NCBI GenBank assembly: GCA_030390025.1
Contig: CM059432.1
Coordinates: 9,672,001-9,736,000, forward strand
Source: Squalus acanthias
Taxonomy: Eukaryota
Length of the DNA: 64,000 nucleotides
Direction of reading: 5' to 3'
Shown here: positions 21,738 through 57,070 of the stretch, in pieces
Layout: every line of letters begins with the position of its first letter
How positions within the stretch are numbered: position 1 is the first letter of the stretch
Notes under the pieces: generated by a model
Told to the model about the DNA's origin: nothing
Database searches by the model: none
Seen by the model: only the letters and a program-made list of their open reading frames with translations
Made by a program: the position numbers and the translations under genes

Positions 21738-22622
21738 GGGGGGAAAATTCAGTTGGTTGCGCCTCCCATTAGCGCCTTAAGAGGGCGCTAATGGGGTGCA
21801 AAGCATCTAGCGCCCGGGCGCGGCGATATTTGCGCCGCTCGCGAAATTAACTAAACATTTTGCGGCGGCGCTAAACAGTACCACCACGATCTCCTGCGCT
21901 GGCAGATCGTGATTTCAGTCGAGTGCGCAACGCCCCGGGAGCGCCCCGGAGCAGATATTGAGTGGCGCCCCCTGCCTTACCGCCTGCCGCTAGCAACGAC
22001 AGGTTGAGGGGAGCGTTTTGCAGTCAGGAAGGGACTGGGGGAGCTCTATTTAAAGGCGACCGCTTCCTGCCTTTTTTTGTTGGTGACATTTTTGAACCAC
22101 ACATTCTGAGAGAGGGACTTCTGGAGCGATTCAACGCTGTTTGAAGGAGTTTTGGGTACTGAGCAGCACTTTGCAGGTTCATTTTGATTTGCCCTTCTTT
22201 TGTATCGATTTAGAAGAGACTGTGGGGGCTGCGCTCTGAGCTCTTTCCCTGGGCCTCTCCATTGTTCTTTCCAGCAGATTTGATGTACAGGTCTCTCCAG
22301 GCCGAGATTCAAGGCTGCAATGAGCAGGATGTGGATGGAAAGCAAGATCAACCCTCCCCTTTAAGAACTGGCCAGCGCCATTGTGTCTGTGTTCCATTGC
22401 TGACTGACATCACATGAGCTTCGCCAGCGCTCTGAGGTAACGCCTCGCTCCTCGGCTTTGCGCCTTAAGACAGATGTGTAGCGCCTGATTTAGCGCTCCA
22501 ATCACCTCCAGGGGCGATAAAAGTCAAGTTTGCAGTCGGAGGCCATAATTAGCGTCAGGCGCTAATCTTTGCGCCCGGCCGATAATTGCGCCCCAAATGG
22601 GGCGATACTGAATTTCTCCCCC
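21738..22622. mobile_element. Harbinger-type non-autonomous element, family B, in a CR1 tail
   Basis: 16-bp TIR GGGGG(G/A)(A/G)AAATTCAGT, TSD ATA, flanks gtcATA|ATAgagtc. Confidence 0.85.
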
Positions 22623-23011
22623 ATAGAGTCATAACGGCACAGAAGGAGGCCATATCTGACCTCAATTTATTTTTCATTAGTTTATACTTGTGATCGCTGG
22701 CCAGGTGATTTAAAAATAATTCTCAATTTTTCAATAAGATTAATGTTACAAATTTTCACAGTTCTCCACGAGATAGTCTCCTGTTCAGCATCACGAGACG
22801 CTCACATAAGTGGACCTCACATGCCCTATGATTAGGAATGCATTTTACTGCACAATATATGGTTACACAATAGCATGACTCAGGGATCATAACAGAGAGA
22901 AAACGAGAAAAAACAAAACTGTCCACTGCACCCCCCTCCTTTGACACTGTGTGTTACCACCTGGAATGAAACTATCTCCCCCTTGGTGTGGAAGCTCTCT
23001 GCATCTGCATT

Positions 23012-23776
23012 GGCCCGAAAATTAGACCTAATACGCGAGAGTACGCATTGTGTACTCTCGCGTATTAGGTCTCCAATTGTCGGTTTCCTGCATGCACTGC
23101 GCATGCGCGGGAAACCGGCACTTCGTGAATTCAAAAGGGGGCGGTTCCTAATTGAACCGTGTGCGCGCTACAGGCTGTGCGCACGCAGTGCACTTAGTTA
23201 TTTTTTCAGCTTTGAACGCGCAGGTAAGTGGTGAACATTTTACACATAAAGAAAGCAGGCGTAGGACCCCCTTTTTACAAGGTAAGTAGTTAATTAAGTG
23301 TTATTTTAAAAAATTTTCAACAGGTTTATCTTTTTTAGAGACTTTAAAGAAAGGTAAGTTTATTTTTATAACATTTAAAAAGATTTAACATTTTTTCAAA
23401 AATTTAATTTTTTGTTTAAAGTGGTTAATTTATTTAACTATACTTATTTTATTAATGTGATGGCTTTTTAAAAAAATTTAATTGAGGTTTAGCTGTTCTT
23501 TTGGGGGGGTATAGTATTCATAGCTTTGACAGGTCTTCCTGTCAAAACTATGAATGAAAGATGGTGTGCTGCCATTGGCTCTAACTGAATCACGTGATCC
23601 CAGAGCTCGCACGAACTAATTGCGTCTCTGGGTCACGCAAGCACTGCACGGTTCCAAGAGAGAGAGCCTTTCAGACTAAAGTTCGTGTGGGCCCGGAGCA
23701 AAAAGGTAGGCGCGGAGTGCGATATCGCGGGGATTCCTTACCCCCGCGGGAACCCTCACTGTTTAATTTCTGGGCC
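23012..23776. mobile_element. Harbinger-type MITE, family C
   Basis: TIRs GGCCCGAAAATTA / TAATTTCTGGGCC, TSD ATT. Confidence 0.8.
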
Positions 23777-24444
23777 ATTATCTATTCGACAAAGCCCCTC
23801 CCCCTCCTCCATCCTCCCCCAGCCAGGCATACTGAAGAAAAACTTACCCCCCTAATTTTAGAATACAAATCGCTTTGGGATGTGCTCAACAACTTCTCAT
23901 TGTCGCAGTGTTGACATAAACAGTTTAATGGCTGCCCTATTTCCCTTCAAGGTGGTTCATTAACAATCCTAACCATCTCATTTGTCCAGTGGCTACAGGC
24001 TTTCTACTATTGAGTGAACACAAAGAATGCAGCTTTCTTGAAAATTTGCCCTTCCTAAACTGAACTTAATATCACATCAATATCAGAACATCAATTGAAA
24101 AGTCCCAAAATGTTGCAATTAGTGAGCGGAGGTAAATAGTGATCATTGAGTGCAATTTTGTGCAGCTATTTTTAAAAGAACATGAGCTTGTTGAGGAGGG
24201 TTCGGAGAAGGACACCAGGGATGATATCAGGATGCGGGGGTATAATTTATGAGGAAGGACTCATGGAATAATACTCATTTTCATTGGAGTAATGAAGGTT
24301 AAGAGAATATGCATTCTTGGCATTTTAAACTGCTAATGAACGGTGTCGATGCAAACAGGTTATTTACCTTAGACTGCGGGCACAGAACTAAACAAAGTGG
24401 TCCCAATGAAGCTGCCACTGTGCAGAGTACAGGCTGTGACGTAA

Positions 24445-24882
24445 AAGAAAAAGAAAGACTTGCATTTATATCGCGCCTTTCACCACCTCAGGACGTCCCA
24501 AAGCGCTTTACAGCCAATGAAATACTTTTTGAAGTGGAGTCACTGTTGTAATGTAGAAAACGCAGCAGCCAATTTGCGCACAGCAAGCTCCCACAAACAG
24601 CAATGTGATAATGACCAGATAATCTGTTTTTTTAGTGATGTTGGTTGAGAGATAAATATTGGCCAGGACACCGGGTAGAACTCCCCCACTCTTCTTTGAG
24701 ATAGTGCCATAGGATCTTTTACGACCACCTGAGAGGGAGAACTCGGTTTAACGTCTCATTGCAAGACGGCGACCACGAGGAATTTTAGCCTGGATTATTT
24801 GGTCAAGGCTGTGGAGTAGGACTTGAACCCATAACCTTCATGACTCAGAGGCGAGAGTGTTACCCACTGAGCCACGGCTGAC
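24445..24882 (-). mobile_element. SacSINE1/Deu-domain SINE
   Basis: Head, body and tail colinear with the other copies. Confidence 0.88.
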
Positions 24883-26749
24883 GTAAGTCTCGCTCTGTAA
24901 ATAGAAAAGGGCGGCTGGCTATGAAAATCTTGTCTGAGAGCTTTGCTGCTAGCTCACTTGCCCAAGAGATGTAAAATCCACTGAGGCGGCCGCTCTTCAA
25001 GGGATGCAGCTCACCATTAAAGGAGAAGTTGTGGTGGTGGCAGAGAAGTGGAGCAATTGTTCCCGAGACCTCGGTGCCTCCCTTTGCTGCTTAAGTTTTG
25101 GAGAGCCTACAGCAGGTGAAGAAGGGTTGGCTTCCCGGCCACCCGGCAGATTGCGGGTTTAGGTTTACGCTCCTGATAATGACGAACCTCTCATCCTCGG
25201 ATCCACCAGTTCTTCCTTTCCATTTGACTTCAAAAGTTCCCCTGATACGCCTGCTGGGCACAGGCTTAGTTCCCATAGTGGGTCTAAAGTGAAGGTCCAA
25301 GGGAGAACGGCTACGGGTCCGAGATCCAAGTGGCCCTCTAGTGGCTTTGTCTCCTGGCCTCGGGCTCCACCCACCACCACACCCCCCCCCGCCCCCCCAC
25401 CTCACAGCAGTAAGGTGGCACTCGTCCCACCACCTCTCGTGGTCGGGTGCCCATGCTGTACCAACCCAGGATTTTGGGATGGGGCAAGCAGTGGGTGGAA
25501 GCGGCAGGCAGAAGATTTTTGCCCCAGCTTTCTGCCACCAGGAGACTTTCTGTGTGGGATTTCTCCCGTCGACGTTCCCATTAATTTTCAGGAATTTCCA
25601 TATATTTTAGGTGTACTCATTACCTTACAACATGCATGGTTAGTGTTCGTTAAGCAGGAGATTTATTCCACGTTCAAAGATGGAAATAAACAGACTGCAA
25701 AGCTTGAATTGAATTCCAGGCCATCAGTTGGCAGACTCTCCAATTAATTATTCTTTACTTATCTTTTTGCAGGATTGAATCAGTTAGAATTTATATTGGA
25801 AATAAAGGTGTTTAATCGTAAAAGAGCAAACAATAGCTGTTAAATGGACCGGCCCTTCTTTTTAAATAATAAATAAATTGAAGTCGCTGAACTCAAATGA
25901 ATTTTATTGTAACCGACTAGGCTAATTTTATAAATATACATAAAAAGATACTTTGCATCTGATTGGCATGTTTTCACTTCGCCTAATTTGTTAAACTCTG
26001 AACTACAGACTTCAAGTAGATTAAAAATCTAATTATAACAGTGTCTTTGTGACACCGCTAATTTATTTCACAGTCCGTTCAAATCTAACATTGAATATCA
26101 TGCGGTTAACAAACAGAAAACAAATGTATTCCTGTTTAGTTTAAATTAACTTAATTTCATAAACACTTAAAACAGTTGCAATTTAATTTTCTCTCAGATG
26201 TTTGCCAATTTGGGTGTTCATTTTATGAATTCAAAATCAAGCAAGTCATGGAGACCAGCAAACTTCTGTTTCCTTTACCTCCGAATGGGCACAATTTCCC
26301 TGGTTTCTCACTTTTTCCAAGTGTTAATTTGAGTTCTGAATGGTGTAACCGGGCAGCATCACCCAGTGGCTGTAGCCCATCGCTCAAAGAAAAACAGAAA
26401 TTCTCATCTGTTTGCTTCGCCCTGTCATTTGTAACGATACCCAGGTAGCAGATTAATAAGAACATAAGAATTAGGAGCAGGAGTAGGTCATTCGGCCCCT
26501 CGAGCCTGCTCCGCCATTCAATAAGATCATGGCTGATCTTCGACCTCAGTCCACTTTCCCGCCCGATCTCCATATCCCTTGATTCCCCAAGAGTCCAAAA
26601 ATCTATCGATCTCAGCCTTGAATATACTCAAAGACTGAGCCTCCACAGCCCTCTGGGGTAGAGAATTCCAAAGATTCACAACCCTCTGAGTGAAGAAATT
26701 CCTCCTCATCTCAGTCTTAAATGGCCTACCCCTTATCCTATGCCCCTCA

Positions 26750-27465
26750 TGTATATCAATCACAAAAAGTTTGCAAGCAGGTACAGCAAGTAATTAGGAA
26801 GGCAAATGGAGTGTTGGCCTTTATTGCAAAGGGAATGGAGTATAAAAGTAGAGAAGTCCTATTACAACTGTACAGGGCGTTGGTGAGACCACACCTGGAG
26901 TACTGTGTACAGTTTTGGTCTCCTTATTTAAGGAAGGATATACTTGCATTGGAGGCAGTTCAAAGAAGGTTCACGAGGTTGATTCCAGAGATGAAGGGGT
27001 TGTCTTATGAAGAAAGGTTGAGCAGGTTGGGCCTATACTCATTGGAGTTTAGAAGAATGAGAGGGGATCTTATTGAAACATATAAGATTCTGAAGGGGCT
27101 TGACAGGGTGGATGCTGAGAGGATGTTTCCCCTCGTGGGGGAATCTAGAACTAGGGGGCATAGTTTCAGAATAAGGGGGCACCCATTTAAAACGGAAATG
27201 AGGAGGAATTTCTTCTCTCAGAGGGTCGTGAATCTTTGGAATTCTCTTCCCCAGAGAGCTGTGGAGGCTGGGTCATTGAATATATTTAAGGTAGAGATAG
27301 ACAGATTTTTGAAAGGTAAGGGAGTCAAGGGTTTTGGGGAGCAGGCAGGGAAATGGAGTTGAGACCAAGATCAGATCAGCCATGATCATATTGAATGGCG
27401 GAGCAGGCTCGAGGGGCCAAATAACCTACTCCTGCTCCTACGTCTTAAGTTCTTATGTTCTTATG
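26750..27465 (+). mobile_element. CR1 LINE 3' part with an open RT C-terminal frame
   Basis: ORF 26721..27362 (KANGVLAFI...[15 protein letters not shown]...FFSQRVVNLWNSLP), (TTCTTATG)n tail. Confidence 0.95.
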
Positions 27466-27504
27466 TAGTTCTAGACTCTCCAGCCAGGGGAAACAACCTT
27501 TCAG

Positions 27505-27975
27505 CTCAGCGTAAGCTCGAGGAACAGCACCTCATCTTTCCTTTAGGCACGCTACAGCCCTCTGGACTCAATATCGAGTTCAACAATTTTAGATCATAAC
27601 CTCAGCTCCAATCACATTTATATTTTATTTTATCCACCCTTTTATTTGTCCCCCCCCCACCTTTTTTTTTTCCTCCTAGAAGCTGGCAGCTGTCCTTCAT
27701 TCTGCCAGTGGATTTCACACTTCATTCAGCCTTAATCTGTCACATTAACACCACCTCTAGCCTTGCATATCTCTTAATGTCTCTTAATGTCTCTGCATCT
27801 CCCCCTTTGTTCCTTTATCCCCTCCCCCTTTTCCCAGCTTTACTCTGGCCTTAAATCTATTTGATTTCCGGCTCTTCCCAGTTCTGATGAAAGGTCATCG
27901 ACCTGAAACGTTAACTCTCTTTCTCTCTCCACGGATGCTGCCTGGCCTGCTGAGTTTTTCCAGCATTTTCTGTTG
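27505..27975 (+). mobile_element. Penelope-like element 3' end
   Basis: 27507-27599 encodes QRKLEEQHLIFPLGTLQPSGLNIEFNNFRS*, resembling the Penelope GIY-YIG C-terminus (RK..E...I..L.TL.P.GLN). It is followed by a pyrimidine-rich tract and a hammerhead motif. Confidence 0.8.
27880..27916 (+). ncRNA. Minimal type I hammerhead ribozyme motif
   Basis: AGTT-CTGATGA-A-AGGTC-ATC-GACCT-GAAAC-GTT-AACT: both core boxes, stem I, stem II and a loopless palindromic stem III. Confidence 0.75.
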
Positions 27976-28764
27976 TTATTTCTCTCAGCATCTACCCTGT
28001 CAATCCCCCTCAGGATCTTATATGTTTCAATGAGATCACCTCTCATTCTTCTAAACCAGAGAGTATAGGCCCATTCTACTCAATCTCTCCTCATAGGACA
28101 ACCCTTTCATCCCAGGAATCAAATAGGGGAATCACTATCTTCTAGATTACACCAATAAAATGTTAAATTCCATCTGTAGTGATACTCAGGGACAGTCAGA
28201 AAGTAGATTAAATGGGGGAATCACTCTCTTCTAGAATCTAGATTACACCAATAAAATTGTAATCGAGTACATATCTGCATGTAACACTAACCCTTCGAGC
28301 ATAATTGACAATTGTACATGCAAATCCAGTGGTCCAATTGATTTGTTTGAATTTGCATATTCAGTCAAATAACACACATTTTTAGTATGAAAGAAAAGAA
28401 AAAGAAAGAAAGACTTGCATTTCTATAGCGCCTTTCACGACCACCGGACGTCACAAAGCACTTTACAGCCAATGAAGTACTTTGGAGTGTAGTCACTGTT
28501 ACAATGTAGGAAAGTCTAGCTCACAAGGTTAAGCTGTTACAGGGCATGATTTTACTTTTATTGTTACCTCCAACGTTTCCCCGTCAAATCACCATTAATG
28601 TCACCTATTATCATACTTCTTCCTTCCGAAGCAGGCGTGAGATAACTCGTCCTGTAAAGTACGCATTGCCCTGGGAGGATTCCATCTCGTGGTCAGTTCC
28701 GATGGGAACAAGGACAGCTGAGCGACTGAAGGTCAATTCAGCTCCAATAACTTATTTTTATTCA

Positions 28765-29112
28765 TTCCCGTTGCCGGCCATTTACTGCCCATTCGTAATT
28801 GCCCTCGAGGAGATGGTGGTGGTGAGCCGCCTTCTTGAAAACCACTGCTAGGCCATCTCAGAGGGCAGTTAAGAGGCAACCACATTGCTGTGAGTCTGGA
28901 GTCACATATAGGCCAGACCGGGTAAGGACGGCAGATTTCCTTCCCTAAAGGACATTAGGGAACCAGGTGGGGATTTTTAAGACAATCCGGTAGTTTCAAG
29001 GTCCCCATTACTGATACTAGCTTTTTAATTCCAAATTTATTGAATTGAATTGAAATTCTCCCAGCGGCCGAGGTGGGATTTGAACTCACGTCTCCGGATC
29101 ATTAGGCCAGGC
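28765..29112 (-). mobile_element. tRNA-derived SINE (same family as 13222-13990)
   Basis: Direct homology (ggtaaggacggcagatttccttccc...attactgatactagctttttaattcc). Confidence 0.75.
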
Positions 29113-29139
29113 CGAAAATAGCATTTCAACTTGGACCTC

Positions 29140-29350
29140 TTTTGGGAATGGGCTGCCATGCTCGATTACTACTTGGACTTTTCATCTCCAAGATCTAAGT
29201 TTGAATCCAGCTCAGACTGATGAGATAAATCTGCTTGCTCTAAGTCTCCTGCGTAAAATCAGTTTGGGTGGCTCCAACTCAATTTCTAATGGGCACAGGT
29301 CCATGGTACAAAATTGCCTCCAACTTGTAGCAATTGTCACTAAATTGGGA
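29140..29350 (+). mobile_element. Ancient LF-SINE-like fragment
   Basis: tttcatctc...tttgaatccagctcaga...aaaatcagtttgggtgg...caatttctaatgggc...caattgtcactaaattgg parallels the LF-SINE consensus as recalled. Not searched. Confidence 0.55.
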
Positions 29351-29426
29351 ATCTTACTTAGGAACTTCAAAAACCATAGCTAATAAGAGAATAAGAAAGG
29401 ATACACTGGTGCCTGGGCTGCTCAAG

Positions 29427-30630
29427 AACAACAACAGCAGCATCAACTTGGGTTTATATAGCACCTTTAACGCAGTAAAACGTCCCAAGGCACTTCACAG
29501 GAGCGTTATCAGACAAAATTTTACACCCAGCCACATAAGGAGATATTCGGACAAGTGACCAAAAGCTTATGTAGAATTACATAGGCCCAAAAATTAGTCT
29601 CAGTACGCGAGAGTACGCACTGTGTACTCTCGCGTATTCTGTCTCCAATTGCCGATTTTCTGCATGCACTGCGCATGCGCTGAAAACCGGCACTTGGTGA
29701 ACTCAAAAGGGGGCGGTTCCTAGGTGAACCGCGTGCGCGCTACAGGCTGCGCGCACGCAGTGCACTTAGTGCTTTGAACGCGCAGGTAAGCATGGAAGAT
29801 TTTGCACATAAAGAAAGGAGGCATAAGACCCTCTTTTAACAAGGTAAGTAGTTAATTAAGTATTATTTTAAAAAATTTTCAACAGGTATATCTTTTTTAG
29901 AGACTTTAAAGAAAGGTAAGTTTATTTTTATAACTTTTAAAAAGATTTAAAAATTTTTCAAAAATTTAATTTTTTGTTTAAAGTGGTTAATTTAATAAAC
30001 TATACTTATTTTATTAATGCGATGGTTTAAAAAAAAAATTTAATTGAGGTTTAGCTGTTCTTTTGGGGTGTATAGATTCATAGCTTTGACAGCCCTTGCT
30101 GTCAAAACTATGAATGAAAGATGGTGTGCTGCCATTGGCTCTAACTGAATCACGTGATCCCACAGCTCGCACGAATTAACTGCGTCTGTGGGATACGCAC
30201 ACACTGCACAGCTGCAGCCTTGAAACTAAAGTTCGTGTGAGCTCGGAAGGAAAAGGCAGGCGCGCAGTGAGATATCGCGGGGAAGCCTTACCCCCGCAGG
30301 AAGGCTCCGTCTTTAATTTCTGGGCCATAGAGTCCACAGCACAGAAACAGGCCATTCGGCCCCACTGGTCCGTGCAAGCGTTTGTGCTCCACACGCGCCT
30401 CCTCCCACCCCTCTTCGTCTAGCCCTATCAGCATACCCTTCCAGCTTGGTCAAAGAGGTAGGTTTTACGGAGAAGGAGAGGCGGCGAGGCTTTAGGGAGG
30501 AAATTCCAGAGCTTAGGGCCGAGGCAGCTGAAAGCACGGTTGCCAATGGTGGGGCGAAGGAAATCGAGGATGCGCAAGAGGGCAGAAATTGGAGGAGCGC
30601 GGAGATCTCGGAGAGTTGTAGTAATTGGGG
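29427..30630 (-). mobile_element. L2 3' end split (29427-29570 and 30445-30630) by a CR1 tail that carries a MITE
   Basis: Pieces are colinear with the L2 at 59500-59997 (GPKLWN.LPK). Confidence 0.7.
29584..30326. mobile_element. Harbinger-type MITE, family C, inserted in a CR1 tail
   Basis: TIRs GGCCCAAAAATTA / TAATTTCTGGGCC, TSD ATA, right flank ATAgagtccacagcacagaaacaggccattcgg. Confidence 0.82.
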
Positions 30631-31494: not shown

Positions 31495-33190
31495 CACCAT
31501 GGCTCAGTGGGTAGAACTCTTGCCTCCAAGTCCAGACCGTCATGAGTTCAAATTCCTACTACATAAGACTTGAGCCCAAAATCTAGGCTGGCACATCAGT
31601 ACCAGTACTGAGGGAGTGCTGCATTGTCTGGAGGTGTCGTCTTTAGGAACAGACGTTAAACCAAGGCCCTGTCTGCCCTCTCAGGTGGATGCAAAAGGTC
31701 CCATTGCACAATTTTGAAGAAGAGCAGCAGAATTCTCCAATTGTCCTGTCCAATATTTATCCCTCAACCAACACCTGAAAACAGATTATCTGGTCATTAT
31801 CACATTGCTGTTTGTGGGAGCTTGCTGTGCGCAAATTGGCTGTCGCATTTCCCTACATTACAACAGTGACTGTACTTCAAAAAGTACTTATAGAGTCATA
31901 GGGGGAAAAATTCAGTATCGCCCCATTTGGGGCGCAATTATCGGTCGGGCGTAAAGATTAGCGCCTGACGCTAATTATCGCCTCCGACTGCAAACTTGAC
32001 TTTTATCGCCCCTGGAGGTGATTGGAGCGCTAAATCAGGCGCTTCACACCTGTCTTAAGGCGCAAAGGCCGAGGAGCGAGGCGCTAACTCAGAGCGCTGG
32101 CGAAGCTCATGTGATGTCAGTCAGCAATGGAACACAGACACAATGGCCCCGGCCAGTTCTTAAAGGGGAGGGTCGATCTTGCTCTCCAGCCACATCCTGC
32201 TCATTCCAGCCTTGAATCTCGGCCTGGAGAGACCTGTACATCAAATCTGCTGGAAAGAACAATGGAGAGGCCCAGGGAAAGAGCTCAGAGTGCAGCCCCC
32301 ACAGTCTCTTCTAAATCGATACAAGGAAGGGCAAATCAAAATGAACCTGCAAACTGCTGCTCAGTACCCAAAATTCCTTCACACAGTGTTGAATCACTCC
32401 AGAAGTCTCTCTCTCTCTCTCAGAATGCGTGGTTCAAAAATGTCGGCAACAAAAAAAGGCAGGAAGCGGTCGCCTTTAAATAACGCTCCCCCAGTCCCTT
32501 CCTGACTGCAAAACGCTCCCCTCAACCTGTCATTGCTAGCGGCAGGCGGTAAGGCAGGGGGCGCCACTCAATATCCACTCTGGGGCGCTAACGGGGCATT
32601 GCGCACTCGACTGACGTCACGATCTGCCGCCGCAGGAGATCGTGGTGGTACTGTTTAGCGCCGCCGTAAAATGTCTAGTTAATTTCGCGAGCGGCGTAAA
32701 CATCGCCGCGCCCGGGCGCTAGTTGCTTTGCGCCCCATTAGCACCCTCTTGAGGCGCTAACGGGAGGCGCAACCAACTGAATTTCTCCCCCATAGAGTTA
32801 TACAGCACAGAAAGAGGCCCTTCGGTCCATCGTGTCCACACCGGCCATCAAGCCCTGTCTATTCTAATCCCATTTTCCAGCACTTGGTCCGTAGCCTTGT
32901 ATGCTATGGCATTTCAAATGCTCATCTAAATGCTTCTTGAATGTTGTGAGGGTTCCTGCCTCTACCACCCTTTCAGGCAGTGAGTTCCAGATTCCAACCA
33001 CCCTCTGGGTGAAAAAGTTTTTCCTCAAATCCTCTCTAAACCTCCTGCCCCTTACCTTGAAACTATGCCCCCTGGTTATTGACCCCCCTACTAAGGGGAA
33101 AAGTTCCTTTCTATCTTCCCTATAATTTTGCCCCTCATAATTTAGTACTTCATTGGCTGTAAAGCGCTTTGGGACGTCCCGAGGCAGTGA
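31495..33190 (+). mobile_element. SacSINE1 (31495-31889 and 33140-33190) interrupted by a minus-strand CR1 3' end (31890-33140)
   Basis: The SINE resumes at agtacttcattggctgtaaagcg. CR1 motifs are at 32792-33140. Confidence 0.8.
31901..32791. mobile_element. Harbinger-type element, family B, in a CR1 tail
   Basis: TIR GGGGGA(A/G)AAATTCAGT, TSD ATA. Inverted homolog of 21738-22622. Confidence 0.88.
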
Positions 33191-33424
33191 ACATGAAACA
33201 ATGGCCTGCGGTGGATGAACAAAATCAAAAGGTCAAACTTCTAATTTAAAAAATGTATTTTCTCTTTGCTTCCCTTCTCTCCTGATGATGCTGACACTTG
33301 CGGCTATATGATGTCACGGATGCTGGAGCCTCGTCCAATAGCCATTCTTCCCACCTGAGCATAGTCAGCGAGTGACGACAAGTACAAGCCTAATCTTGTC
33401 CTCATCTGAAATGCACATGGAACA

Positions 33425-33707
33425 AAAAGACTTGCCTTTATATCGCGCCATTCATGACCTCAGGATGAAGTACCTTTGAAGTGCAGTCACTGTTGTAATG
33501 TAATTGGCGCACAGCAAGCTCCCACAGACAGCAATGAAATAAATGACCAGATCATCTGTTTTAGCGATGTTGGTTGAGGGATAAATGTTGGCCAGGACAC
33601 TGAGTAGATCTCCCCTGCTCTTCTTCAAAATAGTGGCCATGGGATCTTTTATGTCCACCCAACCGGGGCCTCGGTTTAACGTCTCATCCGAAAGACGGCA
33701 CCTCCGA
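33425..33707 (-). mobile_element. SacSINE1 fragment
   Basis: Deu body and tail. Confidence 0.8.
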
Positions 33708-33844
33708 AAGGGCAGCACGAATGGCATCTGCGCATCTGTAGGTCTGTCAGTCATTTTATCTCAAACGCATGACAGCTAAGGAAGCATTAAAGTCCAATAC
33801 GCAGTGTTTTTTGGACGTGCTATGATGATCTCAGCAGAATACTG

Positions 33845-35946: not shown

Positions 35947-36605
35947 GGGGCAAAAATAGGGTCGCGCCCCCTTTGGGGCGCTAACTTTGCCGGGGCGCTA
36001 CTTTTAGTGCCCTGAAAAAGTTAGCGTCCCCGTGCCCGAAATTCGATGGTAGCGCCCCAAGCAGGAGGCGGGGCGCTACTGGAAGCACTCCCCCTCCCTC
36101 TTGGGGTGCTCCAGCCCAATATCGCGGCGCGAGTGCCGCAGCGCCACACTCGCCGGCACGTCGCGCCGCGGTACTGCAGGCCTTCCTCGCCTTATTAAAG
36201 GGGAGGGGCCTAGCGCAGCATGATCCGGGGCCCCCGCTGGGCCACCAGGGAGCGGGGGTGTTGGCAAAAGAGCCCAGCACTCAAGAGGAGCGCTGGGCTG
36301 ACGGATGAGGGGGCAGGTGCTGGCAGACAGCCAGCAAAAAAAATGGCCGCCAGGCGCCTCCCCTTTGAATATCGCCGCCCAGGCCAAATGTACACCCCCC
36401 TGACCCTGTCGGACATAGCGTCCGGCGGTACGTCAGGGGGTGCAACCAAAGTTTGCAGCCAGGGCGCGTAGGGGCGCTGCGCATGGCGATGACATCATTG
36501 CCGGAGGCGCAGTGCTGCGGGGCGCTACCGGCTACCGCTGCCGCTAATCTCCCGCTGAATTTCGCGGCACTAATGGGAGGCGCAAAGCAACCGAATTTTG
36601 CCCCC
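35947..36605. mobile_element. GC-rich Harbinger-type MITE nested in the family A copy
   Basis: TIRs GGGGCAAAAAT / AATTTTGCCCCC, TSD TTA. Absent at the equivalent site (about 19628) of the other family A copy. Confidence 0.85.
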
Positions 36606-45240: not shown

Positions 45241-45319
45241 CACCCGTGGTCACATAAACCTAGCAATAATCATCTGTACCTGCAGTATCCAGTGGTCAAT
45301 TCAACCCATTGACCTACAG

Positions 45320-48300: not shown

Positions 48301-48757
48301 ATGGTTCCAGGAATGAGGGACTTCAGTTACGTGGATAGACTGGAGAAGCTGGGGTTGTTCTCCTTGGAGCAGAGAAGATTGAGAGGAGATTTGATAGAGG
48401 TGATCAAAATCATGAGGGGTCTGGACAGAGTAGACAGAGATAAACTGTTACCATTGGCAGAAGGGTCGAGAACCAGAGGACACAGATTTAAGGTGATTGG
48501 CAAAAAAATCAAAGGCGATGTAAGAAAAAACCTTTTTACGCAGCGAGTGGTTATGATCTGGAATGCACTGCATGAGAGGGTGGTGGAGGCAGATTCGAAC
48601 ACGGCTTTCAAAAGGGAATTGGATAAGTATCTGAAGGAATGAAATTTGCAGGGCTACGGGGAAAGGGCGGGGGAGTGGGACTAGCTGAAGTGCTCTTGCA
48701 GAGAGCCAGCACGGGCTAGACAGGCCGAATGGCCTCCTTCTGTGCTGTCACCATTCT
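45320..48757 (+). mobile_element. Near full-length CR1 LINE: ORF1 SGNH-esterase C-terminal part plus disrupted ORF2 (APE endonuclease and RT)
   Basis: ORF1 VCCLPGARVKDV...VHIGTND, endonuclease GVFYRPP/IMGDFNYP/LDLVL/DH, RT NYRPVSLTS, DFQKAFDKV and FADDTKL. Multiple stops and frameshifts. Confidence 0.95.
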
Positions 48758-49889
48758 CTAATTAGGGATGGGTAATAAATGCTGGCCTTACCAGCGATGC
48801 CCACATCCCAGGAACAAATATAAAAAAGATCTGTTTCTCCTGCTGCTGCTGCTGCTGCAATTAGTTTAAATTCAGTTGAAATTACTTTAAATTCAAGTCA
48901 ATTGATCTGCCCTTGGTCCATAAGACCCGTGACCAGTAGTCAATGGAAGCCACACAGGTGTGTCCTGCTCTGCTGCAATAATTAGTTCATTGAAGACAGC
49001 ACTGATCAGCAGTCAATTGAGGCCAATTGAAAAATAGGACCAAGAGCATTAAATCGGTTGATTGATTTGCCCTGCTCTCCCACAGATCAATTGGTTTAAA
49101 AAGTTGAAGAATGGCTCATCTCATCTCGCAATCCCACCCCTCTTTGTGATGCTGGAGGATGTCTTCTTGCAGTCACGAATCGATTCAGTTGCTTGATTGC
49201 GCTGATTCGCGGGAGATTTTGCGTTTGGGCTTACGCTAATGAGTTTGCGCTGAAACTTCGGTGTGACTTCACCGCGGCAGAAACGCCGCAGTGTCCAGCG
49301 CATTCCCGGCGCATATCGACCACTGCAGCCCGAGCGGAAACCCTACACCAGCATAGTGCCTGCAATTGACCAAACTTTACTCTTCTAGAAATTCTGCTCA
49401 TTTCTTTAGAGTGGAAGTCTGACATACTGGGAGTGGAATAGCAGGAAACTGGGGATGAAACTTCAAGATTTCTGTCCCTTGCTCAACCCCAAGACAACTG
49501 GATGAGGGATCAGATCAGGAGAGTAGTTCTGCGAAGTGGAGTGGTTAGAGTGGAAGAATAGCATTTGTGAACTACAGGCATGTTGGAGGAGGAGAATGTC
49601 TCTAAATTGGGGGTAGATTAGAGAGGAAGAATGCCTTTGTCAACAGTAGGGGTTCAGGAGGGGATATGGGGTCTGAGTGGAAGGGGTTGGAGGGGGACCA
49701 TGCCTCTGAATTGCGGAGGGGTTAGGGGAAGAGTGCCTCTGTGAATGAGGGAGGCTAGAGAGAGAAACCGTGTCAGTAAGGGAGAAGAGGGTTTTTGCAA
49801 AGGGGAGGGGGGAGAAGGGCTGTTTAGGTAACTTTTGGAGAATTAACAGACTGGTTAGTCTACTGAGTATAGAGAAACCCAAGGGGCAC

Positions 49890-50330
49890 TTTAGAGCCTT
49901 CTGGACACAACATCGAGTTCAACAATTTCAGACCATAACCTCTACCCCTATTTTTTCAGACGGCAGCTGTTGCTGATGATTCTGCTATTCCCATTTACAC
50001 CTCTTCTAGACCCATCTTTTGTTTCTTTACTTGTCCCATTACCATCTCCCTTTGCTTTGTACAATCATACCTTTTGTCATTTAATCTCTCCTGCTTTCCA
50101 CCCTATCACAGAACTTCCCTTTTGTTCTTTCCTTCCCTCCCCCTTTCCCTGCCCCCACACTTGCTTAAAACCTGTTACAACTCCAACTTTTTCCAGTTCT
50201 GACGAAGGGTCATCGACCTGAAACGTTGACTCTGTTTCTCTCTCCACAGATGCTGCCTGACCTGCTGAGTATTTCCAGCATTTCCTGTTTCTATTTCAGA
50301 TTTCCAGCATCCGCAGTATTTTGCTTTTGC
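49890..50330 (+). mobile_element. Penelope-like element 3' end
   Basis: Degenerate PSG.NIEFNNFR*, pyrimidine tract, hammerhead motif and the same terminus as 27505-27975. Confidence 0.78.
50195..50231 (+). ncRNA. Minimal type I hammerhead ribozyme motif
   Basis: AGTT-CTGACGA-AGGGTC-ATC-GACCT-GAAAC-GTT-GACT. Confidence 0.72.
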
Positions 50331-50894
50331 ATTTATTATTCCAATTTTTTTGGATTAATAATCTATCAATTGTGAACTAAAGAGGTGTTTAAAAATAAAC
50401 CAGAATGCACCTTTTTTTTTAAAGTAAAAATTAAAGCACGTCGATCAGATGGTGCTCAACCTCCTATACTCGAGGGTGCACAAGCCAAATTTATGCAAAC
50501 TGTCTCATAATTTAACCCGCTAACCCCCGGCATTATTCTGGTGAATCTGCGCTGCACCCCCTCCAAGGCCAAGGTAAACCGCCGGGTAGTATTGGAAAAC
50601 CACAAATAAATGGTTAAGCACACCACCAAGAGTGGTGGTGGTGCAAGAAGATGTAGCACAGTTTGGTGGGATGGGCAGATTCAGTCTCCTAATTCCCCGC
50701 AAAATGAGTTCATAGTCTTGGTTAACATGCTGTGCCAGGACAGAAAAGCACTAACATGGAGGTTAGGTATTCTCTCCATGAACAAAGAGTTAAGAGCAGG
50801 TTTTCTAATATTCACCCTCTAGTAATCAGAAGACGTTCGGGGTGGGGGGGGGGGGGGGGGGGGCGGGTAGTGCCCTGATACAGAGCAAGAAAGC

Positions 50895-51470
50895 ATAGAA
50901 TTACTTAGAATGTACAGCACAGAGGCAGGCCATTTGACCCAACTGGCCCATGCTCCACACAAGCCTTCTCTCACTGCTCTTCATCTAATCCTATCAGCAT
51001 AACCTTCTATTCCTTTCTCCCTCAGGTGCTTCTCTAGCCTCCCCTTAAATGCATCTGTGCTATTTGCCTCAACCACTCCCTGTGCTGGCGAGTTCCACAT
51101 TCTCACCACTCTCTGGGTAAAGAAGTTTCTCCTGAATTCCCTATTGGATTTATTAGTGACTATCTTATACTTATGGCCCCTAGTTTTGGTCACCCTCACA
51201 AGTGGAAACATCTTCTCTACATTTACCTGATCAAACCATTTCATAATCTTAAAGACCTCTATTAGGTCACCCCTCAGCCTTCTCTTTTCTAGAGAAAAGA
51301 GCCCCAGGCTATTCAGTCTTTCCTGATAGTTATAAGCTCTCAGTTCTGGTATCATCTTTGTAAACATTTTTTGGTGCCTTCTCCACTGCCTTGATATCCT
51401 TTTTATAATATGGAGACCAGAACTGTGCACTGTATTCCAAGTGTGATCCAACCAAAGTGCTATACAGGTT
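50895..51470 (-). mobile_element. CR1 3' fragment
   Basis: ORF 50981..51451 LEKRRLRGDLIEVFKI...FFTQRVVRMWNS. Confidence 0.9.
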
Positions 51471-52274
51471 AAAGAAAATAGCTTAAGATTTCAAGAGAAA
51501 TTTTAATAATAGAAGAAGGGACATATAAGAAAAATTCTTGCTTTCTTGGATAAAAACTATATGTCCATGAGGAATAAGGGCATTTTTTAATTTTTTACTA
51601 CCCTTTAAGCTCCATGGCTTACTCTCACTCAAGTTTAACTAAAATAGAGTGTTGATAAAACCATGTCAAACTCCTCATCCAACCCTTAACCAGCCCATTT
51701 ATTCGTCCTTAATAAGCATCACTCACCCATAAAGTGTTATCAACTTTTCAAATGTTGACCACTATGAATGACAGTAACAACCCAACTAAAATTACAGAGT
51801 GTCACAAATGGAACTGTGTAAAAAATGAAAGTAAATGTCTACCATAGCTTCACGTCAACCAGAACACATTCTAACCTGAATAAGATTAAACTGCAATTTT
51901 TCCACCTCAAAGGGAAGCCTATCATGAGATCTCGGGTGGGGGGGAGGGTGCGGGGGTGGGGGGGGGAGGTCGGAGGAAATGATAGTCTTATCAAGGGATG
52001 TCACCATATCCAATGTGACACTTCTTCTCCTGCATCTGACAGCTCCTGAACGTTGCCGGCCAGCATTTGAAATGCTTGTTCCTGTTTTAACACTTCACAC
52101 GATCTAGGCAACAAATAGGTTCGGCCTACTTATTCAATTATTTTTGAAGCTGTGTTAGATGTCTGTGTGGATAACTGTTGTCAGTGTGGAATTCTGGTGT
52201 GATAGACCCTTGTGATAGTATATGTTGCTAAGGGAACAGATGTAAAGAAAGAAAAAAAAGCACCAGCGATCTTC

Positions 52275-52675
52275 TGAGAGCAGGGAAGGCTAAGAGGAGA
52301 TTTGATAGAGCTGTTTAAAATCATGAAGGGTTTAGATAGAGTAAATAAAGAGAAACTGTTTCCAATGGCTGAAGGGTCGATAACCAGAGGGCCCAGATTT
52401 AAGGTGATTGGCAAAAGAACCAGAGGCGACATGAGGAAAGGCTTTTTTACGCAGCGAGTGGTTAGGATTTGGAATGCACTGCCTGATAGGGCGGTGGATA
52501 CAGATTCAGTCATAGCCTTCAAAAGGGAATTGGATAAATACTTGAAGTAAAAAAAATTGCAGGGATATAGGGAAAAAGCAGGGGAGTGGGACTAACTGGA
52601 TTGCTCTTCGAAAGAGCCGGCACAGACTCGATGGGCCGAGTGGCCTCCTTCTGTGCTGTGCTATTCGATGATTCT
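52275..52675 (+). mobile_element. CR1 3' end
   Basis: ORF 52302..52550 followed by the 3' UTR. Confidence 0.9.
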
Positions 52676-54739
52676 GTCTGATAACCTGAGTAATACACTT
52701 CAGGGGTTTTCCTGAATAGCGTGCCATCCAGTATTGTGCAGTATTATGGTGTTAGTTACCTTGCGTATTTTGTTAGACGGGATGCACTCTAGAGTTGAGT
52801 TTTACATTATATGCATCATTACTAATAGACTCACAACTCTACTGCTTCACCCACTGAAACCACTGCAATCGCCCTGAACAACATGCAGTCTATTCATCCA
52901 CACAGCTTCCCTCTCCGTCCATGTTACGTTTACACATTTGCAGGCAGCGAGCACAGCATGGTTTGTGGGAACAATTGTACTTTCTCAATCCTGCATCTCA
53001 ACAGCTCCCTCTTTTATACATTTTCACACAAACTCCATTTGCTCAGGTTGGGGGGGGAGGGGTGGGGGGGAGGGGCGGGGGGCTTGGGGGGGTGGTGGAA
53101 TCATAAAGTTATCTAAAACATTGCCCTACTTTTGGGTAATGCTGTGCATTTTAAAGATGATCCCTTAATCTCACTCTGAAACAGCTGAATGTTGCCCCCT
53201 GAAGCTTGCGGTGGTAAAGGGCAGCGTGTACTCAGCCAGTCTCATCAGATTTACTTGCTGACAGTACAGCAATAACCGAACAGCTATAAGATTTTGGTTT
53301 CTTTTTCCCTTGACCGCTGTCCTGTGTGCGTTTGTGCTTTACGCACCCATGCAGCACTTGGCGCTTTTACTAACGATACCTTTTATTCCTAATGACAAAT
53401 TTTCCGAGTGCAGTAACAGAGATATGAGAAATACACACGGCTGTGTTTCGAGGTGATAAATTAGTGTCTGGTTTTCACAGTGCTTTCGAGCTCCCCGCAT
53501 AGTCTTCAAGGATGTAAAGGCAGTTATATCGCATGATGTGAATGCAATTTTAATTCCTGCATAATTTCACCTTATGCAGTGCTATACCGACTGCGCTTAA
53601 AAAAACCAAGATGAAATAGCTGGAATAAATGATCCTTATTGAGAAGTGATCCTACTATTGATGCTGCAATGAAGCGAGAGAGTCAAGTCAACTAACTACC
53701 TCGCAGAATAGAGCTGCCTCATCTTATCCACACAGCATTAGGCAGAGCTCAAGAGCAATTATTCTGAGTACAGGTTCCTACCTCAGTCACTGTATCAGAG
53801 GACCTGCCATGGAAGCCGCAAATCCCCTCCGTCCTTTCTGTCAGCTTTCAGTGATAAATTCAGGCGCTGGTTTCAAACTTGCTGCTGGTCCTGGGACAGA
53901 CACTCCAGGAAATGAGTGTGTTTCGCTCCTGTCAAGAAGTGCTGACGAGAGAATTCAGCAGGGAATTCAGCATTTTAGAAACTATTTCTTGCACTGTTTT
54001 TTTCACGACCTGATCTACATTTGCTCGTTCGAAGGGTCTCCTCGCTGTTTGCTGTCATTGATCCACTGCCTCTTGAACAGCTCAGGCTCTCTGTGAAGAG
54101 GGAGCAGGGGGACTGGAATCAACCAATTAAGAGATGTGTCTGGGTGTCAGTAACAAGAGATGTACACTGACAAACACCCAGTGGTGAATTATTAATGACT
54201 GTCAGACTGAAATGTTAGAACCCCGCACTTGAATAAACATATCCAGAATGATTTAAATGGGGACAGTTCCTATTAGATCTTTTTTTTTTCCTCATCGCCA
54301 TCGTTTGCATAAGAAAACATTTATCGCTGCTGCGTCTGTAATTAATTCAGACAGCAATGAACTCCAAAAAATTCATCTAATTAACCAAGAGGGCCGCGTT
54401 TCAAAGCCTTGAGGTTTGAGAATATATTTTCAAAGACTTAGTCCAATATGATCAAAAATAATTACATTTACCTTCAACTCAGAATAAACAATTTATACTT
54501 TGAAAGCAACTGCAATGCATAATTATGTAACAAAAATTCTATTTAATTTTGTTGTACATCATTTTTGCAAAGCGATCCTCAATGAGTAAAGTGGATCTAA
54601 TTATGATCAACTCGAGTGAAAATACGATGGAAGTTCTGCTTTGCGGATGTTTCTAATTTAATATTGTTGATGCAGTGTCAGCCTCTTTATATTGAGCATT
54701 AAAGGGACATTATTTTTCATGAAAGATGGAGAAAAAAAG

Positions 54740-55418
54740 GTCCCTAAAGGTGGCAGGGCATATTGAGAGAGTGGTTAACAAAGCATATGGGATCTTGGGC
54801 TTCATAAATAGAGGTACCGTGTATAAAAGTAGAGAAGTTATGCTGAACCTTTATAAAGCACTGGTTAGGCCACAACTGGAGTATTGGGTCCAGTTCTGGT
54901 CACCACACTTTGGGAAGGATGTGAAGGCCCTTGAGAGGGTGCCGAGGAGATTTACCAGAATGGTTCCGGGGATGGGGGATCTTAGCTACAAGGACAGGTT
55001 GGAGAAGCTGGATGTGTTTTCATTAGAGCAAAGGAGGTTGAGGGGTGATTTGATAAGAGGTGTACAAGATTATGACGGGTTTGGATAGGCTAGACGGGGA
55101 AAGGCTGTTCCCACTAGTTGATGGTACAAGGACTAGGGGACACAGATTTAAGGTTTTGGGCAAGAGATACAGGGGGGACGTGAAGAAAAACTTTTTTACG
55201 CAGCGAGTGGTGATGACCTGGAACTCTCTGTCGACGGAAGTGGTGGAAGCGGAGACATTCATTGTTTTAAAGGGGAGACTGGATAGGCACATGAGGGAAA
55301 TAAACTTGCAGGGCTATGGGGATAGAGCGGGGGAATAGGACTGACTGGATTGCTCTACAGAGAGCTGGCACAGACTCGATGGGCCGAATGGCCTCCTTCT
55401 GTGTCGTTATGACTCTAT
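54740..55418 (+). mobile_element. CR1 3' part whose (TATGACTC)n tail hosts two transposons
   Basis: ORFs 54726..55088 and 55060..55338. Confidence 0.92.
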
Positions 55419-56308
55419 GGGGGAAAATTCAGTTGGATTGCGCCTCCCGTTAGCGCCTTAAGAGGGCGCTAATGGGGCGCAAAGCAACTAGCGCCCGTGC
55501 GCGGCGATGTTTGCGCCGCTCACGAAATTAACTAGACATTTTGCGGCAGCACTAAACACTACCGCCACGATCTCCTGCGCCGGCCAATCGTGATGTCAGT
55601 AGAGAGTGCAACGCCCCGGTAGCGCCCCAGACCGGATATTGAATGGCGCCCCCTGTCTTACCGCCTGCCGCTAGCAACGACAGGTTGAGGGGAGCGTTTT
55701 GCAGTCAGGAAGGGACTGGGGTGCACTATTTAAAGGCGACCGCTTCCTGCCTTTTTTTGTTGGTGACATTTTTGCACCACGCATTCTGAGTGAGAAAGAA
55801 AGAATGCAGGAGATATTCAAAGCTGTGTTGAGGAGTTTTGGGTACTGAGCAGCACTTTGCAGGTTCTTTCTGGTTTGAGCTTCCTTGCATCGCTTTAGAA
55901 GAGAATATGGGGGCTGCAGTCTGAGCTCTTTCCCTGGGCCTCTCCATTGTTCTTTCCAACAGATTTGATGTGCAGGTCTCTCCAGGCCGAGATTCAAGGC
56001 TGCAATGAGCAGGATGTGGATGGAGAGCAAGATCAACCCTCCCCTTTAAGAACTGGCCGGCGCCAGTGTGTCTGTGTTCCATTGCTGACTGACATCACAT
56101 GAGCTTCGCCAGCGCTCTGAGGTAGCGACTCGCTCCTCGGCCTTTGCGCCTTAAGACAGGTGTGTAGCACTTGATTTAGCGCTCCAATCACCTCCAGGGG
56201 CAATAATAGTCAAGTTTGCAGTCGGAGGCGATAATTAGTGCCAGGCGCTAATCTTTGCGCATGGCCGATAATGGCGCCCCAAACGGGGCGATACTGAATT
56301 TTTCCCCC
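55419..56308. mobile_element. Harbinger-type element, family B
   Basis: TIRs GGGGGAAAATTCAGT / ACTGAATTTTTCCCCC, left flank gactcTAT, right flank TGT (probably a mutated TAT). Confidence 0.88.
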
Positions 56309-56319
56309 TGTGGCTCTAT

Positions 56320-57070
56320 GGGGGAAAAATTCGTTTGCTTTGTGCCTCCCGGGCGCGGCGATGTGAGCGCCGCTTGCGAAATTGACCAGTTGTTTTGCGG
56401 CGGCGCTAAACACTACCGCCACGATCTCCTGCGCCCGCAGATCGTGACGTCAGTCAAGCGTGCAACGCCCCGGTAGCGCCCCAGACCGGATATTGAGTCG
56501 CACCCCCTGCCTTAGCGCCTGCTGCTAGGAATGACAGGTAGAGGGGAATGTTTTCAAGTCAGGATGGGGCTGGGGGAGCGCTATTTAAAGGCGGGCGCTT
56601 CCTGCCTTTTTTTGTCAGCAAAACTTTTGGTTTTAACGCTGTCTTAAGGAATTTTGGCCCTCAGCTTTTGAGGTTCCTAAGCACCGAGCTCTTTCCCTGG
56701 GCCTATCCATTAGTGCTTCCAACACAATTGCTTTTGCGGTCTCTCCAGGCCAAGATTCAAGGCTGCAATGAGCAGGGAGTGGCTGGCCAGCAAGATGGCC
56801 CCTCCCCTTTAAGAACTGGACGGCGCCAGTCTGTCTGGTTTCCATGGTAATTGGCATCGCCTGAGCTTCGGTAGCGATCTGAGGTAGCGCCTCACTCCCT
56901 GACGTTTGCACCTTAAGAGAGGTGTGTCGCGCCTGATTTAGCGCTCAAATCACCTCCAGGGGCGATAGAGGCGAATTTTGCAGTCGGAGGCGATAATTAG
57001 CGCCGGGCGCTAAATTTTGTGCCCGGCCGATATTAATGCCCCAAAATGGGCGATACTGAATTTTTCCCCC
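56320..57070. mobile_element. Harbinger-type element, family B (diverged subfamily)
   Basis: TIRs GGGGGAAAAATTC / GAATTTTTCCCCC, left flank ctcTAT, right flank GATgactc. Confidence 0.85.

Follow-up and report, generated by a model that had tools for sequence, protein, structure and literature searches.

Four copies of a non-autonomous PIF/Harbinger element (MITEs c1–c4) lie in the 3′ tails of CR1-type LINEs in the window, a stretch of 64,000 nucleotides of Squalus acanthias DNA. For this family, the CR1-type tail is a very strong insertion hotspot, but not a strictly specific target. We consider it very probable that the pattern as a whole is explained by PIF/Harbinger MITEs with an extended palindromic target, for which the dimer of CR1 tail units is an efficient site. 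The four copies are as follows:

21738..22622, + strand: MITE copy c1, 885 bp; target duplication (TSD) ATA at 21735-21737 and ATA at 22623-22625
31901..32791, − strand (inverted relative to c1): MITE copy c2; TSD ATA at 31898-31900 and ATA at 32792-32794
55419..56308, + strand: MITE copy c3; TSD TAT at 55416-55418 and TGT at 56309-56311, one mismatch
56320..57070, + strand: MITE copy c4, 751 bp, a diverged subfamily; TSD TAT at 56317-56319 and GAT at 57071-57073, one mismatch

The coordinates, ends, tail register and both orientations of these copies had been described in the initial annotation, and all hold when the sequence is re-read and compared by blastn. Within the window, c1 is 93.7% identical to c2 and 90.9% to c3 (blastn), while c4 matches the other copies at 82.6-86.6% in two blocks and differs from them in the middle. 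The termini of all four read GGGGG(R)AAAATTCAG...CTGAATTTYTCCCCC, giving an inverted repeat of ~15-16 bp, and GGGGGRRAAATTCAGT is found at both element ends, in keeping with the terminal inverted repeats of PIF/Harbinger elements. Every copy has the junction pattern GACTC-TAT-element-TAT-GACTC, or its reverse complement, inside a CR1-type tail. The orientation of c1 relative to its own host is opposite to that of c2, c3 and c4, and c4 starts one tail unit (11 bp) past the end of c3. Past the tails, the sequences of the c1–c4 hosts are unrelated, by which segmental duplication, an objection anticipated in the initial annotation, is rejected. The left junction of c1 is covered by contigs from two related organisms in public runs; no contig bridging 21738-22622, as expected from an empty allele or an empty orthologous site, was found in four such runs. 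An alignment skipping from 21421 to 22346 was ruled out as an empty c1 joint because one of its sides measures 22 bases.

The copies are carried by three hosts:

21720..22653, − strand: c1 host, a 5′-truncated CR1-type 3′ end with tail units at 21720-21737, split by c1
31889..33232, − strand: c2 host, 3′ part of a CR1-type LINE of the second host type, …CTGTGCTG-TATAACTC-TAT-GACTC
54723..57078, + strand: c3 and c4 host, 3′ part of a CR1-type LINE of the first host type, …CTTCTGTGTCGT-TATGACTC…

Past its element, the c1 host continues with one more tail unit and ~20 nt of 3′UTR (22623-22653), and similarity to other genomic copies ends at 22653. The c2 host retains a C-terminal ORF2 fragment at 32864-33232; the c3 and c4 host retains such fragments at 54723-55338, followed by tail pieces at 55408-55418, 56309-56319 and 57071-57078. 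The C-terminal ORF2 fragments that precede the tails match no Pfam family, and an RVT_1 domain occurs only in a different LINE that adjoins an autonomous Harbinger copy. The hosts are assigned to CR1-type LINEs by their 3′-end structure: the 13 CR1-type 3′ ends in the window share a conserved 3′UTR followed by an 8-bp repeat tail of TATGACTC or ATTCTATG-like units. ATTCTRTG(n) has been described as a non-LTR retrotransposon tail (PMC5381603). GACTC-type tails are present on six of the 13 ends and three of these six hold all four elements, a placement that is far beyond chance.

The family assignment is borne out by an autonomous relative of 4,164 bp (L041+L091), the kind of partner that the initial annotation had called for. 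It has a TSD of CAA and starts with the same 20 bases as the MITE. Its coding regions agree with the cut-and-paste PIF/Harbinger identity claimed at the outset, since the same-termini element holds both a transposase and a Myb/SANT ORF. L091:1-579 matches DDE_Tnp_4 (PF13359) at E 2e-34 and PF04827 at E 3.5e-8, as in transposases of the Plant_tran/DDE_Tnp_4 type, and L041:1230-2300 matches PF13359 at E 3e-11. The separate Myb/SANT-like ORF, on the minus strand of L091:2082-2885, matches Myb_DNA-bind_5 (PF13873) at E 7e-10. The MITE and the autonomous element are 81% identical over their first 380 bp and differ at 2-3 bases of the right terminus. These shared ends suggest that the autonomous lineage mobilises the MITE. 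The long autonomous family accounts for 9 of 60 sampled left ends, and the 38,486 element termini counted genome-wide correspond to ~19,000 copies.

Target duplications were scored with a fixed-offset boundary rule; greedy G-run or C-run boundaries absorb flanking G/C and produce false mismatches. By this rule, 51 of 76 full copies across the genome have a perfect 3-bp TSD, and 14 more match at two of the three positions. A 4-bp TSD fits two of the 76 copies and a longer one fits none; duplications of 2, 4, 5, 6 or 8 bp are rejected on the same 76-copy test. That the inverted repeat reaches into the flank is rejected as well, the flanks being direct rather than inverted. The 3-bp length is therefore as first described, whereas the fixed ATA/TAT sequence gives way to a relaxed, TWA-like triplet. 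In 45 non-tail sites, the first position of the triplet is T, A or C (G once), the second is A or T at 41 of these sites, and the third is never C. These sites define a palindromic target, ARASAY-TWA-RTSTYT, in which A at −4 (35/45) and T at +4 (38/45) are the strongest positions. A TWA-biased 3-bp TSD and a preference extending beyond it are both characteristic of PIF/Harbinger elements. The logo is supported independently by the right-flank consensus TATGTCTTTTAA in contigs of four public runs (162-309 contigs per run). In its flanks it agrees with the target published for Harbinger3_DR, AAACACCWGGTCTTT (PMC3016246), and with the 15-bp preference reported for vertebrate Harbinger elements (PMC2836001). 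A CR1-type tail presents GACTC-TAT-GACTC, which amounts to two half-sites 3 bp apart.

The MITEs would thus move by cut-and-paste via the DDE transposase and the Myb-like protein of their ~4.2-kb autonomous relatives. The transposition complex would generate the 3-bp duplication and favour an extended, roughly palindromic target, in which half-sites of 5-7 bp flank the triplet and −4 A and +4 T contribute most. The protein complex probably reads these half-sites directly. An 8-bp CR1-type tail unit provides exactly one half-site (GACTC) and one triplet (TAT). Two adjacent units then amount to two properly spaced half-sites, resulting in a constant register in either orientation. Two-unit tails are scarce but efficiently used, with roughly a third filled, and the majority of copies still land at weaker sites dispersed over 3.7 Gb.

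How far this preference goes can be read from an unbiased sample of 60 copies among the 100 listed. Thirteen lie in CR1-type tails and 47 elsewhere, with 3-bp TSDs of varied sequence. The initial annotation had proposed a sequence-specific element that targets CR1 tails and had named copies lying mostly outside tails as the outcome that would speak against it; that is what the sample shows, and exclusive targeting of CR1 tails is not supported. Nor do nearly all copies share one target, as in the strictly specific Dada elements. The claimed preference itself persists as a very large advantage per site. The sequence TGTGCCGT-TATGACTC-TAT-G…, belonging to one CR1 subfamily, continues into the element in 42 cases, into a second unit in 47 and into something else in 11 (among the matches listed, the first 100 of 2,071). 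At the TAT located 8 bp upstream in the same CR1 family, with left flank GCCGT, 0/100 continue into the element (the first 100 listed of 7,508). Genome-wide, 2,242 junctions of GACTCTAT with the element compare with 3,957 empty GACTCTATGACTC dimers, and GAYTCTAT or GARTCATA adjoins 1,512 of 14,009 exact left ends. Occupancy also varies with host type, 42/100 vs 9/100 among the matches listed; this may be due to host age rather than sequence.

Retention bias, in which elements insert at random and are purged elsewhere but tolerated in dead LINE tails, could in principle lead to an accumulation in tails, as these are presumably neutral ground. However, retention cannot yield a single-base register, nor, in a 3.7-Gb genome that is largely non-coding, an enrichment by four orders of magnitude. 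It is also contradicted by the difference between 42/100 and 0/100 at TATs 8 bp apart (among the matches listed), and we regard it as extremely improbable.

The same counts bear on the question of whether the tail is anything more than one good match among many. A generic Harbinger preference could act alone, with no extra affinity for the CR1 tail and an excess that stems from a diluted matrix of few sites, plus age or chromatin effects. The non-tail logo already agrees with the tail at the majority of informative positions, and an additive matrix, built from 45 non-tail sites only, gives the GACTC dimer a likelihood ratio of 531-1,001. Another repeat-borne site, GACCC-TTG-GTTCC (likelihood ratio 49-886), is likewise occupied above the matrix prediction, with ~61 occupied vs 7,174 empty sites (~0.8%). 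Against this, the class RASAY-TWA-RTSTY, the family's own consensus, reaches 2,544, a ~5-fold better prediction than for the tail, but its occupancy is by our estimate ~10 times lower. By one measure, occupancy is ~10% for the tail (1,243 x 3/8 over 3,957 empties, with a both-halves factor from 8 sites) and ~1% for the consensus class (434 x 3/19 over 6,115 empties, with a factor from 19 sites). Even when all 434 consensus half-junctions are counted as two-sided, the class rises to 6.6%, vs ~10% for the tail by the same measure. As the matrix ranking is the opposite of the occupancy, either the simple model leaves something out or tails are favoured by another factor. We infer that the excess over the additive model reflects an intrinsic affinity for the tail; a generic preference acting alone is possible, but seems doubtful. 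An apparent second hotspot of 8% (5/60 sampled copies at one site in LINE ORF2) proved to be a fluke, with ~61 of 14,009 genome-wide.

Tail copies might also have been multiplied together with their hosts, if a small number of insertions, or even a single one, in the tail of an active CR1 or a CR1-dependent SINE had been spread by composite retrotransposition (3′ transduction). This predicts homologous flanks on the CR1 side and a unique far flank, as is found in every case. In addition, one CR1 subfamily is highly occupied (42/100 among the matches listed), and by eye, similarity among the host CR1 copies is about equal to that among the elements. Nevertheless, the genome-wide data sustain the initial claim of independent insertions. 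Tail copies occur in near-equal orientations (680 vs 832) and in at least three host families, at different unit positions and with double insertions one unit apart. Median pairwise identity is 0.944 whether copies are compared inside the tail class, inside the non-tail class or across the two. On the element tree, the 26 tail copies among 78 are dispersed rather than clustered, with 22 label changes vs a mean of 22.2 for shuffled labels, although this comparison would be a weak test of a master that originated early in the burst. Finally, the left end points away from the body of the CR1 in seven sampled copies; all seven are full length, show no 5′ truncation inside the element and still have the CR1 body beside them. 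Co-copying of the element along with CR1 is unlikely, and composite retrotransposition as the source of the tail copies is, in our judgement, highly improbable.

Among known systems, the zebrafish Harbinger3_DR and Harbinger3N_DR resemble the Squalus acanthias family in being a two-gene PIF/Harbinger element with a non-autonomous partner, a 3-bp TSD and a strong palindromic 15-bp target (PMC3016246, PMC2836001). The Harbinger3_DR flanks AAACAC…GTCTTT fit the shark logo ARASAY…RTSTYT (PMC3016246). The two differ in the centre of the target, which is a relaxed TWA/TAT in the shark family and CWG in Harbinger3_DR. They also differ in the most used natural target, which is the CR1 tail dimer GACTC-TAT-GACTC in Squalus acanthias; the published passages on Harbinger3_DR mention no LINE-tail hotspot. 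In plants, Ping/Pong with mPing and PIF with Tourist MITEs similarly consist of a two-ORF autonomous element mobilising abundant MITEs, with a TWA-type 3-bp TSD and an extended target preference (PMC2836001). The preference of plant PIF/Ping is 9 bp, however, and no repeat family is named as their main landing site in the parts of that report on these elements (PMC2836001). Dada DNA transposons also land in multicopy sequences, which is argued to be harmless, but they belong to another superfamily and are described as strictly specific for small RNA genes, whereas here 13/60 copies occupy the preferred target (PMC3706591, PMC8869645). We found no paper in the literature describing the pairing of Harbinger elements with CR1 tails.

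The family thus offers a measured natural case in which a defined spot in one mobile element is the main landing pad of another, with ~1/3 of the preferred sites filled and a neighbouring control site untouched (among the matches listed). It further suggests that a two-protein transposase of a vertebrate strongly prefers a target as short as 13 bp. It also accounts for recurrent nested patterns that can confuse repeat annotation, such as MITEs that interrupt CR1 tails or stand in tandem at a distance of one unit. The idea of a safe harbour in LINE tails becomes a question of whether GACTC-TAT-GACTC is bound better than a generic palindrome. More speculatively, this Harbinger lineage may have shifted its optimum from the ancestral vertebrate palindrome to the CR1 octamer dimer. 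It would then home to LINE tails, fill ~1/3 of the two-unit tails and rely on continued CR1 activity to supply new high-affinity sites. We put this forward as a tentative and rather unlikely scenario; if true, it would represent a DNA transposon with another transposon's tail as its niche.

The window holds one more element of this type:

35947..36605, + strand: related Harbinger-type MITE of another family, termini GGGGCAAAAATAGG…CCGAATTTTGCCCCC, TSD TTA

It sits in a non-tail site, AAGACAC-TTA-ACTCC, and an identical flank is found at further genomic copies (L113, L114).

Four copies of the element, a non-autonomous PIF/Harbinger transposon (MITE), lie in the window:

21738-22622: c1, MITE copy, flanks ATA / ATA
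31901-32791: c2, MITE copy, inverted relative to c1, flanks ATA / ATA
55419-56308: c3, MITE copy, flanks TAT / TGT
56320-57070: c4, MITE copy, flanks TAT / GAT

These copies start with GGGGG(R)AAAATTCAG and end with CTGAATTTYTCCCCC. Within-window comparison gives 91-94% identity among c1, c2 and c3, and places c4 in a diverged subfamily of 751 bp. Each copy divides the tail of a CR1-type LINE, an 8-bp-repeat 3′ end whose unit consists of the half-site GACTC and the triplet TAT, in the register GACTC-TAT-element-TAT-GACTC. Relative to the host, c1 is oriented opposite to c2, c3 and c4, while c3 and c4 share one tail, separated by a single unit (11 bp). The positions and shared register proposed in the initial annotation are confirmed for all four copies, with one mismatch each in the flanks of c3 and c4. 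Among the 13 CR1-type 3′ ends in the window, six have GACTC-type tails; three of these are occupied, and the vacant three carry just one unit, a spacing of 6 bp or an imperfect dimer (two adjacent units).

The 3.71-Gb assembly, in which the window spans G000:C8:9672001-9736000, contains 14,009 occurrences of the 20-base left terminus (reversed-pattern control: 0) and 38,486 of the 15-base terminus common to both ends. We examined 30 loci from a similarity search and the first 60 of 100 listed left-terminus places, the latter comprising 44 full-length elements of ~885 bp, nine members of a longer family and seven other variants. The autonomous form of the element is this longer family, whose copy L041+L091 measures 4,164 bp, has the same first 20 bases as the MITE, ends in …AATTTTTCCCCC and has CAA on both sides. 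The plus-strand ORF matches DDE_Tnp_4 (E 2e-34) and also Plant_tran, and the minus-strand ORF matches Myb_DNA-bind_5 (E 7e-10), like the two-gene architecture that PMC2836001 describes for PIF/Harbinger. Because an autonomous form with common ends has this architecture, the 885-bp elements are Harbinger MITEs, in agreement with the superfamily first proposed, and the autonomous partner anticipated there has been found. Judging from the common ends, the MITEs were probably mobilised by the L041+L091 lineage. The same 20-base left terminus also occurs in a second Harbinger lineage (L032 and L035; G000:C1, ~0.917 Mb and ~1.442 Mb), whose two copies are 98.6% identical to each other and only ~72% identical to the autonomous family, with a transposase-like open frame. 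Beside the autonomous copy (L091:3400-4422) lies a LINE ORF2 that contains RVT_1 (E 3e-21) and whose C-terminal region resembles in style those preceding the window's CR1-type tails.

By a fixed-offset boundary rule, a perfect 3-bp duplication flanks 51 of 76 full copies, and a further 14 match at two of three positions; under the same rule, a 4-bp duplication fits 2/76 and a longer one 0/76. In the unbiased sample, CR1-type tails, including those of the ATTCTATG type, hold 13 of the 60 left ends (L037, 42, 47, 55, 56, 57, 62, 63, 64, 65, 68, 73, 84). The other 47 lie elsewhere, and the family is therefore not tail-specific.

A palindromic logo, W-A-R-A-S-A-Y, T-W-A-like, R-T-S-T-Y-T-W, emerges from the 45 non-tail sites whose duplication is recognisable, with A at -4 in 35 and T at +4 in 38. 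Contigs of four public sequencing runs aligned to c1 are an independent check on this logo: their consensus beyond the right end reads TATGTCTTTTAA (162-309 contigs per run, agreement ~0.4), and that beyond a related left end AAAAGACAAA or AAAAAACTAA. Harbinger elements are known for extended palindromic targets, spanning 9 bp in plant and 15 bp in vertebrate elements (PMC2836001); for Harbinger3_DR the target is given as AAACACCWGGTCTTT (PMC3016246). The flanks of the shark family fit that target, and the central triplet alone differs. The CR1 tail reads …TATGACTC-TAT-GACTCTAT… and agrees with the logo at -5, -4, -3, -1, +1, +3, +4, +5 and +6. The 8 bp of its period correspond to a half-site of 5 bp and the 3-bp duplication together, which accounts for both the fixed register and the indifference to orientation. 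A second, related Harbinger-type MITE in the window (35947-36605; termini GGGGCAAAAATAGG…CCGAATTTTGCCCCC, TSD TTA) sits at AAGACAC-TTA-ACTCCTTG, a near-consensus non-tail site. Two further insertions in the genome (L113, L114) share its right flank, which probably makes the site another repeat-borne hotspot.

Exact tail flanks adjoin the left terminus as GAYTCTAT in 680 and as GARTCATA in 832 of the 14,009 occurrences, and family-wide there are 2,242 GACTCTAT/GGGGGARAAATT junctions. Empty sites (GAYTCTATGAYTC) are scarce, at 25,556 genome-wide, including 3,957 of GACTCTATGACTC; the reversed control of the latter gives strand counts of 1,238 and 68, which suggests that an unrelated strand-biased repeat contains that word. 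The cleanest measure of tail heat is the fixed-context count at neighbouring TATs. By hand count of the first 100 listed matches out of 2,071, TGTGCCGT-TATGACTC-TAT-G is followed by the element in 42, by a second unit in 47 and by other sequence in 11. At the control TAT one unit upstream, between CR1 body (GCCGT) and GACTC, the element follows in 0 of the first 100 listed out of 7,508. In the second host type, that of c2, which has AACTC as left half-site, it follows in 9 of 100 listed out of 6,299. In the first host type (the CR1 subfamily hosting c3 and c4), an exact second unit accompanies only 8 of 13 occupied sites; allowing for this factor, about one-third of that subfamily's intact two-unit tails are occupied. 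The mean insertion density across the genome is 3.8e-6 per base. The proposal that the family targets CR1 tails therefore stands as an extreme hotspot (42/100 versus 0/100 listed junctions), but not as specificity, with 47 of 60 copies elsewhere. LINE tails may serve the family as an adaptive safe harbour, as first suggested.

The tail likely has an affinity beyond a generic logo match. An additive matrix built from the 45 non-tail sites gives likelihood ratios of 531-1,001 for the GACTC dimer, 121-228 for the GATTC dimer and a mean of 2,544 for the consensus class RASAY-TWA-RTSTY. This class (RASAYTWARTSTY) has 6,115 empty genomic sites, and 434 left termini adjoin RASAYTWA. In 40 of these examined, the right end was visible in 23, the triplet was TWA in 19 of the 23, and RTSTY was also present in 3 of the 19, giving an estimated ~57-69 full matches and ~1% occupancy. 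For the GACTC dimer, ~1,243 half-junctions (the GACTC/GATTC split being a hand count of the first 100 rows each among the GAYTCTAT and GARTCATA matches listed), a factor of 3/8 for both halves being exact and the 3,957 empties give an estimated ~10%. The dimer is thus ~10-fold more occupied than a class that the matrix ranks 5-fold higher. Part of this gap reflects the weakness of a 45-site additive matrix, since GACCC-TTG-GTTCC also exceeds its prediction, holding ~61 of the 14,009 left ends, compared with 7,174 empties (~0.8%). This site precedes the reverse-transcriptase domain of another LINE family by ~325 bp and has been entered repeatedly (L036, L075, L040, L041, L074), with insertions in either orientation and from different subfamilies, among them the autonomous copy. 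The reversed (not complemented) control of RASAYTWARTSTY occurs 21,149 times, a 3.5-fold deficit for the forward word; composition or past site use is conceivable.

Tail copies could also have multiplied by retro-copying of a CR1 + element composite, which would likewise leave the CR1 body at one flank and unique DNA at the opposite one. We consider this very improbable, as neither orientation is rare (680 to 832), no fewer than three host families are involved, and unit positions vary, with double insertions at c3/c4, L003, L019 and L055. Seven sampled copies have their left end pointing away from the CR1 body; every one is full length and retains the body, so LINE-type 5′ truncation within the element is absent from this set. 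When 78 copies are placed on a tree, the labels of the 26 tail copies require 22 changes (shuffle mean 22.2; 271/500 shuffles at or below the observed value), a test that would not detect a master arising very early in the burst; the evidence from orientation and host families is free of this weakness. Tail-tail, non-tail-non-tail and mixed pairs all have the same median pairwise identity, 0.944. The independent insertions argued for initially are thereby upheld.

Strict target specificity is reported for Dada DNA transposons (PMC3706591), and the shark family falls short of it. In the full-text literature, a scope without most subscription journals and Repbase Reports, we found no account of Harbinger elements residing in CR1 tails. 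What is added here is the recognition of a Harbinger family's dominant natural hotspot in a LINE tail, a structural reason for it (unit = half-site + duplication), and per-site occupancy figures with an internal control.

Pairwise divergence between copies is ~5.6%. Contigs from two related organisms (H and I) cover the flank left of c1 and extend into the first 13 bases of the element (22-23 differences over 324 bases), so c1 is older than their split; no empty allele of c1 was seen in contigs of the four public runs aligned to it. Inside c1, many contigs of relatives in runs X15, X17 and X18 connect 22197 to 22418 via CTT, which indicates an abundant deletion-derivative subfamily, ~220 bp shorter, in these relatives. 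An internally deleted copy, L081 (G000:C1, ~18.94 Mb), has bases 1-135 fused to 685-885, the left flank of L031, a CR1 tail as right flank and mismatched duplications, and looks like a rearrangement between two copies.
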